32,000 nt of DNA from Gammaproteobacteria bacterium (GTDB lineage Bacteria; Pseudomonadota; Gammaproteobacteria; G965277405). Numbering within the stretch: position 1 is the first letter of the stretch; each line of letters starts with the position of its first letter. Made by a program: the position numbers and the translations under genes. This document shows positions 1-13,183 of the stretch, piece after piece. The DNA is taken from the NCBI GenBank assembly GCA_965277405.1, contig OZ255726.1, positions 2,052,675 through 2,084,674 on the forward strand, read 5' to 3'. Under the pieces are notes generated by a model. That model was given only the letters and a program-made list of their open reading frames with translations, was not told the origin of the DNA and ran no database searches.

Positions 1-79
1 CGGTTTGTGCCTGCGGAATGCGCCTTGCAATTGCAGGTAAATTCGCTCACTCAGCGAGTTAGTCAGATGTTGCTTGGGG
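1..79 (+). mobile_element. Partial MITE-like repeat (right-end portion, truncated by window edge)
   Basis: Positions 1-79 align by eye with the right ~80 bp of the full copy at 30549-30851 (cggtttgcgccttgcaat...cagcgagttaatcagaggttccctaag). The terminal inverted repeat is degenerate here (gagttagtcagatgttgcttgggg). Confidence 0.6.
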
Positions 80-218
80 AACATATAAGATAATTTAAAC
101 GAAATTCAATACCTTACATATCTTACATACATTACAATAGCAAAAGTAGTGTACGTATTAACTGCCTGTAGCTGTGTACACGCTTTAACAATAAGCAGCA
201 ACACAGCGATAAGTTCAT

Positions 219-347
219 AAAAAAAGCCCCCTTACGCCGAGGGTAAACCTAGACGATGCGAGGGCTTTAGGACGCATTTAAGCGGAGCCTGCGAAAAGAA
301 TTTCATTGGTATGAAAAGCTAAGCCAAACTGTAGTCGGTTAAACTAT
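219..347 (-). ncRNA. tracrRNA: Predicted tracrRNA (anti-repeat near the 5' end, intrinsic terminator at the 3' end)
   Basis: Plus-strand 326-343 (AAACTGTAGTCGGTTAAA) is the exact reverse complement of repeat positions 3-20. Read on the minus strand, the flanking GG (325-324) can form G.U wobbles with the repeat UU, and UUCAUACC further 3' can pair with the repeat 5' end GUUGUGAA. On the minus strand, 244-226 (ACCCTCGGCGTAAGGGGGC) forms a GC-rich hairpin followed by T7 (225-219). The 5' end is inferred from the promoter-like motif at 354-383. Confidence 0.65.
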
Positions 348-353
348 CGGATT

Positions 354-383
354 ATCATACCACAACATTCATTTTTTACACAA
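354..383 (-). promoter_or_regulatory. Sigma70-like promoter for tracrRNA (minus strand)
   Basis: The minus strand reads TTGTGT (383-378), 18 nt, then TGG-TATGAT (extended -10-like, hexamer 359-354). This places a start near A347/G348, just upstream of the anti-repeat. Confidence 0.4.
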
Positions 384-388
384 AAGAT

Positions 389-3300
389 ATGAAAAAAATA
401 CTTGGTATAGATGTAGGAAGCAATTCTATTGGTTGGGGCTTAATTACAGCAAGTGACAGTGGCTTGTGTAGCGATGTTGTAGCCTTAGGATCCCGTATAT
501 TCATGAAAGCTATTCAGGACGACAGTACCAAACCTAAAAACGTCCAGCGCCGTACAAGTCGTTTGTTACGCAGGGTTTTAGAAAGGCGCGCTAGGCGCAA
601 AAGAAATTTGGCAAACTATTTAATATCGCAAAATTTACTCCCAGCTGCACTCAGCGACAATTTTCACCAAGAAGGCTTATTAAATAGTTTAGGAGACCCA
701 TATGAACTACGTGCTAAAGCCTTAGACGACCAGCTTAAACCCTATGAATTAGGTCGTGTTTTGCTGCACTTTGTAGCGCGTAGAGGCTTTTTAAGTTCAC
801 GTAAAAGCTTACTCGGAGACTTGGTAGACGACCCTGACATGCAAGCTTATTTAAACGAAGTAGCAGAGGAAAGCGCCCAGGGTAACAGCCAAACAGAAAA
901 AGAGGAAAAGCAGTTTTTACTAGAAATAAGCATTTTACGCAACAAAATTATACTTTCTGGCAAGCGCAGCCTAGGTGAATATTTGTTTGCTTTAGTCAAT
1001 AGTAACAAAAGAAACAGGAAGCATGCCTTTGAGATTATTCGTACTGATAGAGCCATGTATCATGAAGAGTTTACCCAAATATGGCAACAGCAAACAACCT
1101 TTTTTGCGCACTTACCCAACAGCTTTATTGAAAAGGTTGAAAAAATTATTTTTTACCAAAGACCCCTTAAATTAAAAAAAAACCGCATAGGAAAATGCTC
1201 GTTAGAAAGGAATAAATACCGTGCAAAACAAGCCACTTTACAAGCGCAGCAGTTTCGATACTTACAAGACATTAACAACCTTATCATTTATCAAGGTAAT
1301 GCTGCCGACCGCCCACTTACTCATGAGGAAAAAGAAAAACTTTATAAAATTTTAGAACAACAAAAAAAAATCACTTACGCCGTTATTAAAAAAAAATTAG
1401 GGTTACCTAGAACAATCACTTTTAATCTGCAAGCAAGTAAGAAAGAACTTCAAGGCAATGAGACTGCTTGCAATATTCGCTCTGTTATCGGTGAAGTCTG
1501 GGACAATATGGAAGATTTAGAACAAGAAAAATTGGTGGAAGACTTGCTGACCATGAAGAAGAAGTCTGCGTTAAAAAGACGTCTGATAAACTACTGGGGG
1601 TTTAGCGTAGACGCAGCCATACAACTTTGTTTGCTCGAATTTACTGCAGGTCATAGTAACTTATCACTTAAAGCTCTTAATAAATTATTACCTCATCTAT
1701 ATGAAGGGAATATGTATAGCGATGCAAGAATAAAAGCTGATTATGAGGTTACCCAAGAGTCAAAAAACTTAGACCGTCTCGGCAGCCCGCCTGTAACTTG
1801 TAACCCCATTGTCAATAAAGGATTGCACGAATTACGGCGCTTAGTTAACGCAATTATCGCCCAGTACGGCAAGCCTGATATTATTCGTGTGGAAATGGCT
1901 AGAGACTTAGAGCAAAATACTAAGCGCTACAAAGCAGCAGAAAAAACACGTAAGGCGAATGAAACACGTAATGAAAAAGCAGCAACGCAGTTTGCATCTT
2001 TAATGGGTCCGCACCATAGCAAAAAACCCTCGCTAAATGACAAAATTAAATATCGACTATGGCAAGATCAAAACAAACTTTGCGCCTATAGTTGCCAAAC
2101 CATTGCTGCTACGCAAGTATTTAGTCTAGATACCGAAATAGACCATATTTTGCCGCGGAGCAAATCCTTAGATAATTCTTATCCTAATAAAGTTATTTGT
2201 TTTAGTCAGGAAAATCAGAAAAAACACGATACAACGCCCTTCATGGCTTGGGGAGGTGACACTGACAAGTGGCGCAATATGCTACAGGCAGCAAATACAT
2301 GGAAGATTAAAAAGAAGCTTAGAGACAATAAGCTACAGCGTTTTAAAATCACTGCAGAAGAGTTAAAGGAAATAGCACGTGGCGCTGTTACTACGCAGCT
2401 CAACGATACCCGCTATATTGCACGCGAAGCCTTAAGTTATCTAGCTACATTAGGTTGCGATACGCATGCTGTAAAAGGTCACACTACTGCATGGCTACGG
2501 GGTAGACTGGGCTTTAATTTCTTACTTAATGTTGATGATACAAAAAATCGTGAAGATCACCGGCATCATGCCGTTGATGCTGTCGTAATCGCTGCCACAT
2601 CGCGCCAGCTATATCAAAAAATTGTCGATGCAATAAAACAACAACAACAACATGGTTACAAAGCACCATTGATATTAGATGACTATGCCCACATTCGCCA
2701 ACGCTTGCTCGTGCTGTTACAACACGTTACTGTATCTTATATACCACAATACCAGCTAACAGGCGCGCTGCACGAAAGCAGAGGGCTTGGGTTTATCACT
2801 GTAAAGGAAGACAATACTGAAATTACGGGAACAGTTAATAGAACGGCTGTAGATAAAAAATTGAATAGTAAGCGTGCTTTAAAAATTATTGATAAACAGG
2901 TGCGTGAACTAATTTTAGCACAGCTAACAGCACATAATAACAATCCCAAAGAAGCATTTATAGACAATAACTACCCTTTGCACAAAGATGGTAAAACCCC
3001 CATTAAGCGGGTGCGTATATGGAAGACAAAGATATCAACAGAAAAACTCCATGCTACCAAATTAGCCATACATGACCAAGCGGGCAAGGTATTCAAATGG
3101 TGTCTTTTTGGCAACACCCACCATGTAGAAGTCATTAAAGAAAAAGCAACGGGGAAAATTGCAAGTAAATTTATTACGATGTACGCAGCCAGTTGTCGTT
3201 TAAAGGGTATTGGGGTAGCGCAATCTGCTGCGGTGATAACCAATCATGGGCAAGAGTATGAATTTATTATGGCGCTGCATATCAACGACACGGTAAGTTT

Positions 3301-3523
3301 GCGCATCACAGGCAATGACGAACGCGTGTTGTATAGGGTGCAGAAGTTCAGTTTGGATACGAACACTCTTTTCTTGTGTTTAAACGTGGCGGCAACTTTA
3401 CACCATAAAAATCAACAGCTTAGCATGAACATCAACACCGCTAATTTTGAAAAATACCAACCTATGTTACATAAGGTCAATGCTATAGGTCAAGTTGTGC
3501 GTGTTATTGCCAGTTATCCTTAA
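389..3523 (+). CDS. cas9: Cas9, compact type II-C-size endonuclease (1044 aa)
   Basis: RuvC-I motif is GIDVGSNSIGWGLI at the N-terminus. An arginine-rich bridge helix follows (RRTSRLLRRVLERRARRKRNL). The HNH motif is EIDHILPRSKSLDNSYPNKVICFSQENQKKHDTTPF and the RuvC-III motif is HRHHAVDAVVIAA. cas1, cas2 and a CRISPR array follow directly, and no csn2 or cas4 is present. Confidence 0.95.
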   Translation: MKKILGIDVGSNSIGWGLITASDSGLCSDVVALGSRIFMKAIQDDSTKPKNVQRRTSRLLRRVLERRARRKRNLANYLISQNLLPAALSDNFHQEGLLNSLGDPYELRAKALDDQLKPYELGRVLLHFVARRGFLSSRKSLLGDLVDDPDMQAYLNEVAEESAQGNSQTEKEEKQFLLEISILRNKIILSGKRSLGEYLFALVNSNKRNRKHAFEIIRTDRAMYHEEFTQIWQQQTTFFAHLPNSFIEKVEKIIFYQRPLKLKKNRIGKCSLERNKYRAKQATLQAQQFRYLQDINNLIIYQGNAADRPLTHEEKEKLYKILEQQKKITYAVIKKKLGLPRTITFNLQASKKELQGNETACNIRSVIGEVWDNMEDLEQEKLVEDLLTMKKKSALKRRLINYWGFSVDAAIQLCLLEFTAGHSNLSLKALNKLLPHLYEGNMYSDARIKADYEVTQESKNLDRLGSPPVTCNPIVNKGLHELRRLVNAIIAQYGKPDIIRVEMARDLEQNTKRYKAAEKTRKANETRNEKAATQFASLMGPHHSKKPSLNDKIKYRLWQDQNKLCAYSCQTIAATQVFSLDTEIDHILPRSKSLDNSYPNKVICFSQENQKKHDTTPFMAWGGDTDKWRNMLQAANTWKIKKKLRDNKLQRFKITAEELKEIARGAVTTQLNDTRYIAREALSYLATLGCDTHAVKGHTTAWLRGRLGFNFLLNVDDTKNREDHRHHAVDAVVIAATSRQLYQKIVDAIKQQQQHGYKAPLILDDYAHIRQRLLVLLQHVTVSYIPQYQLTGALHESRGLGFITVKEDNTEITGTVNRTAVDKKLNSKRALKIIDKQVRELILAQLTAHNNNPKEAFIDNNYPLHKDGKTPIKRVRIWKTKISTEKLHATKLAIHDQAGKVFKWCLFGNTHHVEVIKEKATGKIASKFITMYAASCRLKGIGVAQSAAVITNHGQEYEFIMALHINDTVSLRITGNDERVLYRVQKFSLDTNTLFLCLNVAATLHHKNQQLSMNINTANFEKYQPMLHKVNAIGQVVRVIASYP

Positions 3524-3547
3524 ATTTTGCTAGCTGTACAAAAAATA

Positions 3548-4441
3548 ATGATTAAACGCATTATTGATATTGGGCAAGCAAGTTACTTGCATATTCAGCA
3601 TCAACAACTATGCATTGAACAAGCAGGTAAACAAGTAGGGCGTATTCCCATAGAAGATATAGCTATTATTATTATTCACGATACTGCTAGCTACTATACT
3701 CATGCCTTGTTTATCGAGCTATTAAGACATAATGTTGCAGTAGTGTTTTGCGACCGCCATCATCTACCCTTGGGACAACTAGCCCCTATAGCATCTCATA
3801 GTTTGCATACCAAAATCATTCACGAGCAAATACAAGTTAAAAAATCCACTAAAAAACGCCTGTGGAAGCTGATAGTCCAAGCAAAAATTCGTGAACAAGC
3901 CACCACTTTGAGGTTGACAGGCAAGGATGCACAAAAAATAAGCGCCCTTGTTGACCAAGTAAAAAGTGGAGATAGTGCTAATGTAGAAGCCAATGCTGCG
4001 CGTTGCTATTTTAATGAATTATTTGGCAACGCCTTTAGACGCGACAGGCAACAAGCTGGCATAAATGCTCTGTTAAATTATGGGTATAGTGTAGTGCGTG
4101 CAATGTTTGCGAGGGCTATTGTTGCCACGGGCTTACACCCCACTTTTGGCATCCAGCATTCTAACCAATACAATCACCTATGTTTAGCAGATGACTTAAT
4201 GGAGCCATTTCGCCCTTGGGTGGATGAAGCGGTGTATGCGCTGACACATAAAAACGAGGTTATATCCGTTGACAAAGCAAGCAAAACGACGGTACTTAAT
4301 CTGTTGAGTAACAATGTAGTATGGACGAAGAAACACCAACCTTTTATGGTTGTGAGCCATTATTTAGCGGCAAACCTCAAACAAGCTTTAGTAACGAACC
4401 AGCCTGTTTTTAGCATTCCACAAAGAGTTGACAAACAATGA
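3548..4441 (+). CDS. cas1: Cas1 integrase
   Basis: Cas1 motifs are present (NALLNYGYSVVRA; GLHPTFGIQHSNQYNHLCLADDLMEPFRP). The gene lies between cas9 and cas2. The ORF track starts at TTG 3527, but ATG 3548 (MIKRIIDIG) seems the more likely start. Confidence 0.9.
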   Translation: MIKRIIDIGQASYLHIQHQQLCIEQAGKQVGRIPIEDIAIIIIHDTASYYTHALFIELLRHNVAVVFCDRHHLPLGQLAPIASHSLHTKIIHEQIQVKKSTKKRLWKLIVQAKIREQATTLRLTGKDAQKISALVDQVKSGDSANVEANAARCYFNELFGNAFRRDRQQAGINALLNYGYSVVRAMFARAIVATGLHPTFGIQHSNQYNHLCLADDLMEPFRPWVDEAVYALTHKNEVISVDKASKTTVLNLLSNNVVWTKKHQPFMVVSHYLAANLKQALVTNQPVFSIPQRVDKQ

Positions 4442-4797
4442 GCAGCAGGGATTGTACTTACAATAAAGTTATATTTGGCGGACTTAAAACCATGTGGATA
4501 ATTGTGCTATTTGACTTGCCTACAGTAAGTAAAACAGAACGCAGAGCCTATACTGTTTTTCGTAAGCATTTACTCAATGACGGTTTTAATATGATGCAGT
4601 TTTCCGTGTACATGCGTCATTGTGCTAGCGAAGCAAACGCGCAGGTGCACGAGACGCGCATACAAGCAGCCTTACCGAGCTTAGGAGAGGTAAGGGTCAT
4701 AAAAATAACCGATAAGCAATTTGGTAAAATTCAAGTTTTTTATGGTAAAAAACGCAAAAAAACCGAAATTCCGCCATTACAAATGGATCTTTTTTAA
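4438..4797 (+). CDS. cas2: Cas2
   Basis: The start overlaps the cas1 stop in an ATGA arrangement. The core MWIIVLFDLPT...FSVYMRHC is typical of the Cas2 ferredoxin fold with the beta1 Asp. The CRISPR array lies immediately downstream. Confidence 0.9.
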   Translation: MSSRDCTYNKVIFGGLKTMWIIVLFDLPTVSKTERRAYTVFRKHLLNDGFNMMQFSVYMRHCASEANAQVHETRIQAALPSLGEVRVIKITDKQFGKIQVFYGKKRKKTEIPPLQMDLF

Positions 4798-4847
4798 ATG
4801 CCACTTAGGCATACAACCCTTACCAACCAAGTAGTTTCCCACTTTGT

Positions 4848-6126
4848 ACTTTAACCGACTACAGTTTAACCACAATTCACAACAATCCGCACGACCATCT
4901 GCGAGACAACCATACTTTAACCGACTACAGTTTAACCACAATTCACAACTCTCATTGTTCAAACGGCAGGGCATTGTTAACTTTAACCGACTACAGTTTA
5001 ACCACAATTCACAACAAAGAGAGTTAATGAATAGCTACATGGAAGACTTTAACCGACTACAGTTTAACCACAATTCACAACCGGTCACGTTGTCGTGACG
5101 GCAATGTATTTACTTTAACCGACTACAGTTTAACCACAATTCACAACGACGAATGATGATACTCGCTACTGTACCAACTTTAACCGACTACAGTTTAACC
5201 ACAATTCACAACACCTAGGACTGTTGCGATTTAGGTAATCAACTTTAACCGACTACAGTTTAACCACAATTCACAACTGGTTTCGGCACGTTAAAAAAAT
5301 AGCAGACACTTTAACCGACTACAGTTTAACCACAATTCACAACCGAAAGCTACGGACGACGAAATAAGCTTGGACTTTAACCGACTACAGTTTAACCACA
5401 ATTCACAACACTCCGAATGCAATCATCAATACCGCATTTACTTTAACCGACTACAGTTTAACCACAATTCACAACAGAAATCGGCTAAATCCGACTAAAT
5501 CGTCTACTTTAACCGACTACAGTTTAACCACAATTCACAACAACAATATGAGCGTGATAATTGCGTTTCAACTTTAACCGACTACAGTTTAACCATAATT
5601 CACAACAAAAGCTAAAGGGGATATCTGCTTTGAAGGACTTTAACCGACTACAGTTTAACCACAACAATGGCTGTGTTATTGAACCTGCGGCTATACTTTA
5701 ACCGACTACAGTTTAACCACAATTCACAACAACTGACCATAGCTTGTTACGATTTAGCAAACTTTAACCGACTACAGTTTAACCACAATTCACAACAATT
5801 TGACCGCTGTCATAAACTTTAGAATAACATTAACCGACTACAGTTTAACCACAATTCACAACAATTTAACCGCTGTCATAAACTTTAGAATAACTTTAAC
5901 CAACTACAGTTTAACCACAATTCACAACAACCGACCATAGCTTGTTACGATTTAGCAAACTTTAACCGACTACAGTTTAACCACAATTCACAACAATTTA
6001 ACCGCTGTCATAAACTTTAGAATAATTTTAACCGACTACAGTTTAACCACAATTCACAACAAATACAAGTTGCCAAACTTACTGATGCAAACTTTAACCG
6101 ACTACAGTTTAACCACAATTCACAAC
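4848..6126 (-). CRISPR. CRISPR array, 20 repeats of 36 bp and 19 spacers of 29-30 bp; crRNA probably transcribed from the minus strand
   Basis: The plus-strand repeat is ACTTTAACCGACTACAGTTTAACCACAATTCACAAC. Repeat starts are 4848, 4914, 4980, 5046, 5112, 5177, 5242, 5308, 5374, 5440, 5506, 5571, 5637, 5695, 5761, 5827, 5893, 5959, 6025 and 6091. The reverse complement begins GTTGTG, like other type II-C repeats. Orientation is inferred from the strand of the tracrRNA terminator and from G.U-compatible pairing. Confidence 0.95.
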
Positions 6127-6151
6127 AGTTGTGAGAATCGTGATAAAAAGG

Positions 6152-6449
6152 CTGGGGTGTTACCCTCTTGACAAAAATGCTCTAATACAGTGAGTTGGTT
6201 GGCAATTGTTAATGGTAGATGATGGTACGGTGCGAGCCAAAGCATGCCTGCCACGGATGCAACATAGCAAGTGAGGGCAATTACTGCAATCTGCAAGTAT
6301 ATTGAACACAGGGATGGAAAAAAAGCTGCGCTAACGTCGTTGCAGCACTTGATAATACCACCAAGTATTATTTGCGCACTGCGGCTAGTTATCATCAGCG
6401 TTTTTTCTCCGTCTCGCCCATCATGGACTTAATCAGAGATTCCTTGTAG
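6152..6449 (-). mobile_element. MITE-like repeat, near full length, inverted orientation
   Basis: The reverse complement of 6449-6330 is nearly identical to 19987-20110 (gattaagtccatgatgggcgagacggagaaaaaacgctgatgataactag...). The rest is diverged but alignable. The copy begins 25 bp after the last CRISPR repeat. Confidence 0.7.
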
Positions 6450-6685
6450 GGTTATATTATACACTAGTCTTGACCACCCACGGGTGAGCAGATTGGTGTT
6501 ATGCAGGATAAACGCGGTCAAAGTCCAGCAATCGACAGCAACACCCAAATTGACAAAACCAAGCCCTAAAATTAGAAATATCAGCCATTTAGTGGCAATT
6601 TATCATTCACTAGCTAGTATTGACCCTGACGATATGACTTTTTTTTATGTCATTCTTATACGTTAAAGCGATTGTCGGGGGGTCA

Positions 6686-8155
6686 ATGCGTCGCACTATA
6701 TGTTTCGTCCATAAGGGGCAGATAAGAGAGTTGGTACCGAGAGAACCAACACAAACTGTCCTGAATTTTCTGCGGTATGAAGACGCCTTGACTGGTACGA
6801 AGGAAGGCTGCGCTGAAGGAGATTGTGGTGCATGCACCGTTGTCCTTGGCGACCTTGAGCTAGACGGCTCAATTCGCTATCTGGCCGTCAATTCCTGCAT
6901 TCAGTTTTTACCAATGCTGGATGGTCGAGAGTTGATTACCGCAGAAGACCTGAAATTAGCAGACGGCTCTTTGCATCCAATCCAACAAGCAATGGTTGAC
7001 CACAACGCCACCCAATGCGGCTTCTGCACCCCAGGATTTGTCATGTCTCTGTTTGCTGAAAAGCACGGCAGCAATTCTGCTGATACTTGGGACGTCAATA
7101 ATGTACTTGCGGGGAATCTGTGCCGCTGTACTGGGTATGGGACCATTATTGCGGCTGCAAAGAGCGCAGCTGCAAGCCACGCTGACGATCAATTTGATGG
7201 GACAATGGAGACCAGAGCCGGCATGCTGAAATCTCTTCAGCAAAATCCCCCCCTTGCTCTGCAGGCAAAAGGTAACCGCTATTTCGCTCCCACATCAATA
7301 GCTGAGCTTGCCGATTTGCTGGCAACCTATCCGCAGGCCATCCTCCTTGCTGGTGCGACGGATATCGGGCTGTGGGTGACTAAGCAGCATCGTCAACTCG
7401 ATACACTCATTTATCTCGGGCGGATACAAACACTCAAAGCAATGGTACTGGATGAAAACTCGATCTCGATTGGCGCGGGCGTCACGTATGCAGAAGCTTG
7501 GAAAACACTGGGGTCAGAGTATGCGGATCTGCATGAACTAATCCGCCGCATTGGCTCTACACAGATCCGCAATTCCGCAACCATTTGCGGTAATATTGCC
7601 AACGGATCGCCGATCGGAGATATGCCGCCAGCGCTGATCGCGCTTGACGCCACGGTGACCCTAACGAGCAAACGAGGTAGTCGTAGCATCGCGCTTGAAA
7701 AATTCTTCATCGGCTATAATACGCAAGATTTGCAGCCGGGGGAGTTTGTAGAAAAAGTATCTATACCAAGACCATCGGCTACTAAGCAGTTCAGGGCCTA
7801 CAAAATATCTAAAAGGTTTGACCAGGATATTTCAGCTTTGTGTGCCGCTTTTAATCTCACATTGGCAGGGATAACGGTCAAAGACATCCGCATATGTTAT
7901 GGGGGCATGGCTGGTACGCCCTTGCGCGCTCAACAAACCGAAGCTGCCGTCATCGGCAAAGACTGGGTGCGCGCAACCATTGATACGGCCTTGCAGGCTA
8001 TGAGCAAAGATTATCAACCGCTCAGCGATATGCGGGCGAGTGATCGGTACCGGATGGCGGTGGCACAAAATCTGTTGTTGAAATTTTTTATTGAGACAAC
8101 AGATCGGCACACGGCAACCCGTCTGCTCGGCGATATGGAGCGCGCCCATGCGTAA
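6686..8155 (+). CDS. xdhA: Xanthine dehydrogenase small subunit (2Fe-2S plus FAD-binding)
   Basis: 2Fe-2S motifs are present (CAEGDCGACTV, CGFCTPG, CRCTGY), as is the FAD-binding LLAGATDIGLWVTK. The start is probably ATG 6686, preceded by GGGGGG. The track ORF starts at 6647. Confidence 0.9.
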   Translation: MRRTICFVHKGQIRELVPREPTQTVLNFLRYEDALTGTKEGCAEGDCGACTVVLGDLELDGSIRYLAVNSCIQFLPMLDGRELITAEDLKLADGSLHPIQQAMVDHNATQCGFCTPGFVMSLFAEKHGSNSADTWDVNNVLAGNLCRCTGYGTIIAAAKSAAASHADDQFDGTMETRAGMLKSLQQNPPLALQAKGNRYFAPTSIAELADLLATYPQAILLAGATDIGLWVTKQHRQLDTLIYLGRIQTLKAMVLDENSISIGAGVTYAEAWKTLGSEYADLHELIRRIGSTQIRNSATICGNIANGSPIGDMPPALIALDATVTLTSKRGSRSIALEKFFIGYNTQDLQPGEFVEKVSIPRPSATKQFRAYKISKRFDQDISALCAAFNLTLAGITVKDIRICYGGMAGTPLRAQQTEAAVIGKDWVRATIDTALQAMSKDYQPLSDMRASDRYRMAVAQNLLLKFFIETTDRHTATRLLGDMERAHA

Positions 8156-11638: not shown

Positions 11639-13183
11639 ATGGAGACACAAGTTGCGCCGACACCCCGCCTAGAACTGAAGGGTATTACCAAAGCCTATCC
11701 TGGCGTGTTGGCTAATGATAGCATCGACCTGAAAATTTTCCCTGGAGAAATCCATGCTCTTTTTGGCGAAAATGGAGCCGGAAAAAGTACGCTCGTCAAA
11801 ATCATATATGGGGTTTTGCAAGCCGATTCTGGCATAATGGAATGGGATGGTAGGCCATTGCAAATTGCCAATCCCCACGCTGCGAGGAAAATCGGCATTG
11901 GTATGATTTTTCAGCATTTCTCACTCTTTGAGGCAATGACTGTTGTCGAGAATATCACGCTGGGGCTGCCATACCGCGAGAATATGGCTGAACTCGCGCA
12001 ACGCATCCGCGAAATTTCAGAAAATTACGGTCTCCTCCTCAACCCGTACCGATATGTCCATACGCTCTCTGTAGGCGAAAAACAGCGGATAGAAATTGTC
12101 CGTTGTCTGCTGCAAAACCCTAAATTGCTCATCATGGATGAGCCAACATCAGTTCTCACGCCGCTAGAAGCTGACAAGATGTTTACAACGCTACGCTGTC
12201 TGGCAACTGAAGGGGTTGCCATACTCTATATCAGCCATAAACTTTACGAAATACAGACCCTTTGCCATAAGGCAACAATCCTGCGGGGCGGCAAGTACAT
12301 TGCAGAATGTGACCCAAGCGTAGAGACCGCTAAAAACCTCGCCGAGATGATGACTGGCACCAACTTTACTGCAGCAAAGCACAGCGATAATAGCACGCGT
12401 GATCTGGTCTGCCTCAAGGTCAACAACCTCTCTTTGGATAGTACTGGTCAGTTTGGCACCGACCTCAATTTGATCAATTTCGAAGTAAGAAGCGGAGAAA
12501 TTTTCGGAATTGCCGGGGTTGCTGGCAATGGGCAAGTTGAGCTGCTAGCAGCACTTAGCGGCGAAGTAACGTGCAAAAATGCGCACGACATTCTGCTTGA
12601 ACAACAACCGATTGCCCATACAGGTCCCAATCAACGCAGGGAACTTGGTGTTGCATTTGTCCCCGAAGATCGGTTGGAGCATGGGTCTGTGGCTGACATG
12701 AGTTTGGTGGATAACGCCTTCCTCAGCGCCTATGGGCAGAAAAAACTTGTATGCATTGGTTGGATTAAAAGGCGCAAGACGATGAAATATGCAGATGAGA
12801 TTGTCGCCAAGTTCGATGTACGAACCACAGGGATTACCCACATGGCCAGCAGCCTGTCAGGCGGAAATCTGCAAAAATTTATCGTCGGCCGCGAAATGCT
12901 GAAAAAACCGAAATTGATCATTATTGCGCATCCTACGTGGGGGGTTGATGCATGTGCCGCCGCGGCTATCCAGCAGGCAATAATCGACCTCGCCGCAACA
13001 GGTACAGCTGTTTTGGTGGTTAGTCAGGACCTAGACGAACTATTTGCCATCAGTCATCGCATCGCGGTCATAGCAGCGGGCCGACTGTCCATCAGCCGCG
13101 CTGTTGATGAAATAGCAGTCGAGGATATCGGCGAGTTGATGGGCGGCGCCGCGGCAAAAATGGAATGTAACAATGTTGCTTAA
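11639..13183 (+). CDS. ABC transporter ATP-binding protein with two fused NBDs (sugar/nucleoside CUT2 type)
   Basis: Walker A is GENGAGKST, the signature LSVGEKQR and Walker [10 protein letters not shown] second, degenerate NBD is present (GVAGNGQ, LSGGNLQK). Two permease genes follow. Confidence 0.9.
   Translation: METQVAPTPRLELKGITKAYPGVLANDSIDLKIFPGEIHALFGENGAGKSTLVKIIYGVLQADSGIMEWDGRPLQIANPHAARKIGIGMIFQHFSLFEAMTVVENITLGLPYRENMAELAQRIREISENYGLLLNPYRYVHTLSVGEKQRIEIVRCLLQNPKLLIMDEPTSVLTPLEADKMFTTLRCLATEGVAILYISHKLYEIQTLCHKATILRGGKYIAECDPSVETAKNLAEMMTGTNFTAAKHSDNSTRDLVCLKVNNLSLDSTGQFGTDLNLINFEVRSGEIFGIAGVAGNGQVELLAALSGEVTCKNAHDILLEQQPIAHTGPNQRRELGVAFVPEDRLEHGSVADMSLVDNAFLSAYGQKKLVCIGWIKRRKTMKYADEIVAKFDVRTTGITHMASSLSGGNLQKFIVGREMLKKPKLIIIAHPTWGVDACAAAAIQQAIIDLAATGTAVLVVSQDLDELFAISHRIAVIAAGRLSISRAVDEIAVEDIGELMGGAAAKMECNNVA

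Follow-up and report, generated by a model that had tools for sequence, protein, structure and literature searches.

Five consecutive spacers of a CRISPR array near the start of the DNA analysed here (a stretch of 32,000 nucleotides from a gammaproteobacterial genome, hereafter the window) carry only two sequences, each of which recurs in versions differing by a single base. The first-pass annotation had taken these differences, which fall at predicted seed positions, as a possible record of phages that escaped immunity and were then sampled again, and had named duplication within the array followed by drift as the alternative. Which of these histories does the locus support? The evidence below indicates that the five spacers probably arose by segmental duplication inside the array, followed by change in place, in the older part of the type II-C array.

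The window starts with a compact type II-C CRISPR-Cas locus, in which a predicted tracrRNA on the minus strand is followed by cas9, cas1 and cas2 on the plus strand and then by the array (array 1):

219..360, minus strand: predicted tracrRNA (18-nt anti-repeat at ~326-344, intrinsic terminator at 243-227, cofold -69.1 kcal/mol)
389..3523, plus strand: cas9, 1044 aa (TIGR01865, E 2.6e-179)
3527..4441, plus strand: cas1, type II, NMENI subtype model (TIGR03639, E 9.6e-87)
4438..4797, plus strand: cas2 (TIGR01573, E 6e-19)
4798..4847, no strand: region between cas2 and the array, the probable acquisition (leader) end by II-C analogy (PMC6008519, PMC8092290, PMC12638026) and by the polarity of repeat decay
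4848..6126, minus strand (crRNA sense): CRISPR array of 20 repeats of 36 nt and 19 spacers of 29-30 nt

NCBIfam models matched three adjacent open reading frames as cas9, cas1 and cas2, the gene set of a type II-C system, and neither csn2 nor cas4 was found at the locus, where these three are the only reading frames between the tracrRNA and the array. The gap between cas2 and the array is 50 bp, and downstream of the array a short flank leads to a xanthine dehydrogenase operon. No Rfam family matched window positions 1-7000. The host genome, a single 2.17-Mb contig, contains a second type II-C locus outside the window (G000:C1:1403666-1415683), with the same layout: an anti-repeat on the minus strand, the genes cas9 (1089 aa), cas1 and cas2 in plus-strand orientation, and an array (array 2) of 104 repeats and 103 spacers at G000:C1:1408852-1415683. 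The Cas9 of the window (1044 aa) is ~30% identical both to this second Cas9 and to the nearest Cas9 among 40 relatives. Just upstream of the second cas9 (G000:C1 ~1403880-1404090) lies a short copy of its ribosome-binding region and first codons, apparently the remnant of a duplication of the cas9 5' end. At the cas-distal end of array 1, an inverted repeat (window 6118-6138, stem ~7-9 bp) is formed by the final 9 nt of R20, the terminal repeat, and the adjoining flank; in a minus-strand transcript the 5' end of the first repeat would thus pair with upstream flank RNA, a pairing that resembles the leader-repeat hairpins blocking extraneous crRNAs.

The recurrent spacers are arranged as follows:

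5731..5760, minus strand: spacer 14 (S14, A), T at plus-strand base 4
5797..5826, minus strand: spacer 15 (S15, B), G at plus-strand base 6
5863..5892, minus strand: spacer 16 (S16, B'), A at plus-strand base 6
5929..5958, minus strand: spacer 17 (S17, A'), C at plus-strand base 4
5995..6024, minus strand: spacer 18 (S18, B'), identical to spacer 16

Parsing of the array reproduced both of the reported polymorphisms, namely a single difference at base 4 (T/C) between S14 and S17 and a single difference at base 6 (G/A) between S15 and the identical pair S16=S18. Along the plus strand the spacers thus run A, B, B', A', B'. Each of the five is 30 nt long and in register, with exact boundaries and array repeats on both sides, as expected of duplicated units, and A-B ... 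A'-B' forms a colinear block of more than one spacer. Since all other spacer pairs in array 1 are more than 12 mismatches apart, the resemblance within this group is not due to chance.

The meaning of the two polymorphic positions depends on the strand from which the crRNAs are made. A stretch of 18 nt ahead of cas9 (plus strand, ~326-344) has the same sequence as the minus-sense repeat, a terminator scan placed a minus-strand intrinsic terminator at 243-227, and the minus-strand RNA running from ~360 to 219 has the predicted anatomy of a tracrRNA. In cofolding, this RNA formed a long intermolecular duplex with the minus-sense repeat (-69.1 kcal/mol) and no intermolecular pairing with the plus-sense repeat (-39 kcal/mol), so that the locus has, as predicted from sequence and cofolding, the tracrRNA anti-repeat of a type II-C system. 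Because the anti-repeat is complementary only to the minus-sense repeat, the crRNAs are assigned to the minus strand, as the first-pass annotation had supposed. A Cas9 guide has its PAM-proximal seed at the spacer's 3' end; with minus-strand crRNAs, the plus-strand 5' end of each spacer is thus PAM-proximal here. Given this tracrRNA-derived strand, the placement of the two differences in the seed, 4 and 6 nt from the PAM-proximal end, was borne out.

Acquisition end and decay of the repeats

The escape reading had taken A, B, B', A', B' as a chronological order, supposing that new spacers enter at the cas-distal end (6126). Cas-distal entry is contradicted both by the literature on type II-C systems and by the decay of the cas-distal repeats, and the chronology resting on it is inverted. 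Type II-C arrays acquire spacers at the cas2-proximal end, which is downstream in transcription (PMC6008519, PMC8092290, PMC12638026, PMC12477760). In the II-C arrays of Flavobacterium columnare, transcription starts inside the array and runs towards the variable leader end (PMC8092290), and in Neisseria, for which the acquisition polarity is taken from later papers, the end adjoining the last repeat was amplified as the leader end (PMC12477760). Along with acquisition at the transcription-downstream end, these arrays are unique among subtypes in having more mutations in the transcription-proximal repeats (PMC12638026, PMC12839519).

The variant repeats of array 1 are the following:

5571..5606, minus strand: R12, C26T
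5637..5665, minus strand: R13, 7-nt deletion between two ACAA direct repeats
5827..5862, minus strand: R16, T3A
5893..5928, minus strand: R17, G10A, in the same CpG as the A vs A' difference
6025..6060, minus strand: R19, C2T

Mutated repeats cluster cas-distally in both arrays of the genome. In array 1 they hold ranks 12, 13, 16, 17 and 19 of 20 (one-sided p 0.016), 0/11 falling in R1-R11 versus 5/9 in the rest (Fisher p 0.008). In array 2 they occur only in the cas-distal quarter (ranks 80, 90, 97, 99, 101 and 104 of 104, p 1.7e-5), and the cas-distal end itself is a truncated repeat. The array would be read antisense to the cas operon and towards the acquisition end, the strand following from complementarity to the tracrRNA and the acquisition end from repeat decay together with the literature. 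We infer that new spacers enter array 1 at the cas2-proximal end. Since II-C entry is on the cas2 side and the mutated repeats are cas-distal, the A/B block would sit in the old, decaying third of the array, farthest from cas2 and transcribed first. If the copies were acquisitions with cas2-side entry, their order in time would therefore be B', A', B', B, A.

With the polarity corrected in this way, escape and re-acquisition would mean that B' and A' were taken up first, that a seed-mutant escaper arose, and that B and then A were acquired from it cas2-proximally. The newest copies, S15 and S14, would then both be variant alleles, which is a coherent haplotype switch. That these two alleles adjoin, as one escaped target haplotype would give, and that both differences fall in the first 6 of the 30 PAM-side positions (at 4 and 6), speaks for this history and counts against duplication. 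However, two protospacers alone would have to account for five slots in a row, the target contributing no further spacer, and either S16 or S18 would exactly repeat a spacer still present in the array, which brings no benefit. Escape also offers no reason why substitutions should be as dense in the flanking repeats as in the spacers. R16, R17 and R19 have one private substitution each; R1-R11 are perfect. A point against duplication is that none of the variant repeats was duplicated along with the spacers, so that under this history every point change must postdate the copying. The density of changes was 2/150 nt (1.3%) in the spacer copies versus 3/216 nt (1.4%) in repeats R14-R19, and that of 0/396 nt in R1-R11 would have a probability of 0.0075 at the distal rate. 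The changes in the repeats are not explicable by escape from immunity; a single process of in-place change in an old segment accounts for both kinds.

The 7-nt loss in R13, flanked by direct repeats of 4 nt, bears the mark of slippage in this part of the array. With it goes most of the spacer 13 crRNA handle on the side next to the spacer, and the unit is probably non-functional.

Repeated blocks, targets and the rival histories

The history that we consider likely for spacers 14-18 would begin with the copying of a two-spacer unit (A-repeat-B), by replication slippage or unequal recombination between identical 36-nt repeats. One extra B unit would have been copied as well, and the copies would then have gained point changes in place, like the surrounding repeats. 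In favour of duplication, the two sequences fill five consecutive slots and include an exact extra copy (S16=S18).

Array 2 is rich in block duplications, which also argues against escape. Its spacers 45-48 read B-C-B-C' (letters here denote array 2 families), D.EFG at 49-53 recurs as DEFG at 56-59, and H-H-I at 61-63 recurs with H at 68 and I at 71; other copies are A at 42 and 75 and H' at 91. The block copies are nearly all identical. Blocks that recur with their internal order intact are a hallmark of copying from repeat to repeat, not of independent uptake. Over both arrays of the genome, redundant copies account for 14/122 spacers (11.5%), compared with 19/906 in 29 other type II arrays and 24/1547 in 51 arrays of other types, all 80 from the same class and together ~2% redundant (Fisher p 6e-6, which is overstated since copies within a block are not independent events). 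In the SpacerPlacer survey repeated spacers made up 3.3%, and 86% of them were duplications, with reacquisitions and independent insertions at ~1% each (PMC11472070). Because this prior and the local context both point to it, duplication is favoured for A-B-B'-A'-B', and the ~1% share of reacquisitions weighs against escape.

A different origin of the copies would be recombination between arrays, in which diverged A-B versions from sister lineages were joined by homologous recombination after uptake of DNA. The alleles are linked as this would predict, A with B and A' with B', and recombination between arrays is reported to be documented but rare (PMC4524480, as cited in PMC11472070). No second lineage or related array was found in the collections searched, the extra B' copy would still require a duplication, and the whole is less parsimonious than local slippage, so that we regard recombination as very improbable. 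Still less credible is an artefact of assembly or polishing, by which the copies or the single-base differences would not be real. The single 2.17-Mb contig is probably a long-read assembly, and arrays with internal repeats are hard to polish; against this, systematic errors would strike copies in identical context alike, the lengths of the units are exact, and the same kinds of feature recur in the second, much longer array.

The first-pass annotation had proposed a search for targets carrying either allele, and none was found in phage, plasmid, metagenome or genome collections. With the variable base left out of the pattern, A and B protospacers were absent from the host's own genome, from INPHARED (50,697 phage records), from the PLSDB plasmids, from IMG/VR, and from JGI metagenome contigs and GTDB species genome contigs, which counts against escape. 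Searches with the whole arrays, which overall included the own genome, INPHARED, PLSDB, IMG/VR and the JGI and GTDB contigs, gave no target either. A search of metagenome and genome contigs with a 20-nt core of the repeat brought up no further array carrying it, so that no stage between the single and the duplicated block was observed, which counts against duplication; the host is the only genome of its family in the collection searched, where its nearest relatives share only the class.

A self-target of B' was considered in a three-copy gene for a subtilase with P-domain (906 aa), at G000:C1:1392-1408, 12493-12509 and 598702-598718, and rejected: the match comprises 17 contiguous nt (19/30 overall) with mismatches in the seed, and lies within chance, ~0.4 such 17-mer matches being expected for 119 spacers by our own estimate. 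Separately, spacer T22 of array 2 matches G000:C1:1943879-1943900 over 22/22 nt, far beyond chance, and may mark a partial self-target or the remnant of a mobile element.

Some spacers of this genome are true repeated samplings of one target region. S8 of array 1 (window 5344-5373) and T96 of array 2 (G000:C1:1415156-1415185), one from each Cas9 system, share 28 nt, offset by 2 nt and with one mismatch, so that they were acquired independently, with different PAM spacing. T8 and T44 of array 2 have 27 nt in common at an offset of 3 nt, with one base different, and T63 and T101 of the same array overlap on opposite strands. The pairs S8/T96 and T8/T44 are independent samplings of one target region, and re-acquisition from variant targets thus happens in this lineage; these pairs with one SNP each count for escape and against duplication.

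The proposed bias of the substitutions towards the seed was examined over further pairs. The discovery pairs alone (A/A' and B/B') have a mean position of 5 of 30 (p ~0.05). Among the in-register pairs of array 2, C/C' has its difference at position 17 and H/H', whose members lie at least 23 spacers apart, at positions 3-4, the latter being a further point for escape. All four in-register pairs of the genome, the discovery pairs included, average position 7.6 (p 0.03). Other type II arrays, a small sample whose orientation came from the GTT-start rule alone, had 5 near-identical pairs offering 11 variant sites, with a mean position of 15.3 of 30 (p 0.47). The bias thus did not extend to this sample, which argues against escape.

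Overall, the seed positions remain in favour of escape and re-acquisition, whereas the chronology, the block pattern, the identity of S16 and S18 and the lack of bias elsewhere do not, and we consider that history unlikely. Duplication with later change, which the first-pass annotation had kept as its alternative, fits better with the colinear blocks and with the equal density of substitutions in spacers and repeats.

Spacer substitutions and the array's own repeat

Random drift alone probably does not explain the base changes that would have followed the copying, since in this genome they sit within short segments that match the repeat exactly. In the discovery pairs the repeat-matching alleles are A' and B' (7 and 8 nt); after this had been noticed, the four other SNP-bearing pairs of the genome were used as a replication set. 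In 6/6 SNP-bearing pairs the variant site lies inside a same-strand stretch in which one allele is identical to the array's own repeat, over 7, 8, 6, 6, 6 and 7 nt, compared with only 2-4 nt for the other allele (spacers in window 5731-6024, and T8, T44, T46, T48, T61, T91 and T96 of array 2). Such stretches cover only 4-6% of spacer positions. With the repeat-like allele taken as given and the SNP placed randomly within that spacer, the joint probability is 5e-4 to 9e-4, and that of the four replication pairs alone 0.008. Shuffled repeats gave at least 4/6 in 0.13% of trials and 6/6 never in 3000, and control sequences gave 0/6 (reverse complement), 2/6 (reversed repeat) and 1/6 (the other array's repeat). 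No repeat-identical stretch was found in the seven identical-copy families of array 2.

The variant sites of the spacers also map to repeat positions that are themselves mutated in variant repeats. Position 27 of the array 2 repeat is changed in R80 (C>T) and R99 (C>A) and corresponds to the C/T difference of T96/S8, with T46/T48 at position 26, and the CpG at positions 9-10 of the array 1 repeat corresponds both to A'/A (C/T) and to R17 (G>A). The pattern was seen at 0/23 variant sites in 12 pairs from 81 arrays of other genomes; the effect is specific to this genome or has some other cause.

In a lineage prone to slippage, the repeat-identical stretches suggest either brief template switching or a hot spot of mutation that spacers and repeats share. 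One possible reading is a short template switch against a nearby repeat, for which S8, taken as outgroup to T96, and the double change at neighbouring bases in H/H' both speak. The other possible reading is a hot spot of shared sequence context; in a test on SNPs of paralogs, GCCA and CCGA contexts looked ~2.4-2.7-fold enriched, in counts dominated by a few multi-copy families. Either reading would tie the base changes to the array's own sequence, by which the escape reading of A and B is weakened further: target evolution would not make variant sites coincide with repeat-identical stretches. As a tentative and rather doubtful extension, we propose that spacer ends in this lineage become rewritten, whether by repeat-directed template switches or by a hot spot common to spacers and repeats, and that the block duplications come from the same slippage-prone replication. 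If true, spacers would decay or be inactivated in a way not described before, able to mimic the signatures of seed escape.

Further ideas about the repeat-like alleles were set aside. Similarity of the whole spacers A and B to the repeat, which would make them degenerate repeats, was marginal (p 0.014 and 0.1 before multiple testing), and a general excess of repeat-like k-mers across all spacers was not significant. Selection against mispairing of the tracrRNA with repeat-like seeds is unlikely, because the k-mers are short (6-8 nt vs a duplex of at least 30 bp) and a mutated seed would lose its target.

Comparison with known systems

Recurrent spacers that differ in the seed tempt one to read them as fossils of phage escape. 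The strand of the array, its true acquisition end (inverted in type II-C), the block structure and the decay of neighbouring repeats should be checked first. In the present case the escape record is disfavoured, its chronology being inverted and no target having been found in the collections searched, and duplication of repeat-spacer units is an already known process. What remains is that two Cas9 arrays are unusually rich in duplications and that their spacer SNPs track repeat-like microsegments; this association and the duplication load are the only part that might repay further work, and the association, if real, matters for inferring host-virus history from spacer polymorphism.

The A/B block is like known duplications of spacer-repeat units by replication misalignment (PMC11472070; recombination study PMC4524480) in its identical boundaries, its colinear blocks and its location away from the acquisition end. 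Unlike those, the copies here have diverged by single bases, and redundant copies are ~5x commoner in the two arrays of this genome than in 80 others. The locus as a whole is like the II-C loci of Neisseria meningitidis, Riemerella anatipestifer and Flavobacterium columnare, with cas9-cas1-cas2 followed by the array, 36-nt repeats, 30-nt spacers, and a tracrRNA and crRNAs antisense to the cas operon. Acquisition on the cas2 side, downstream in transcription, has been shown in those three species and would apply by inference to the array here; unlike in those loci, the nearest Cas9 found in 40 relatives is only ~30% identical.

As in re-acquisition from CRISPR-escape phage mutants, near-identical spacers differ at seed positions, but no polymorphic target was found, and duplication is the better fit to the order within the block, the exact extra copy and the decay of the repeats. 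Mutagenesis templated by quasi-repeats through short template switches is known from Ripley-type models, from quasipalindrome hot spots of E. coli and from genomic template switches; to our knowledge it has not been described for CRISPR spacers. The substitutions here differ from that process in that the flanking microhomologies are very short (2-5 nt), and the pattern is absent from 12 near-identical pairs of other genomes. They resemble it in that one allele restores perfect identity over 6-8 nt with repeat sequence 11-36 nt away, and in that one case changes two adjacent bases at once.
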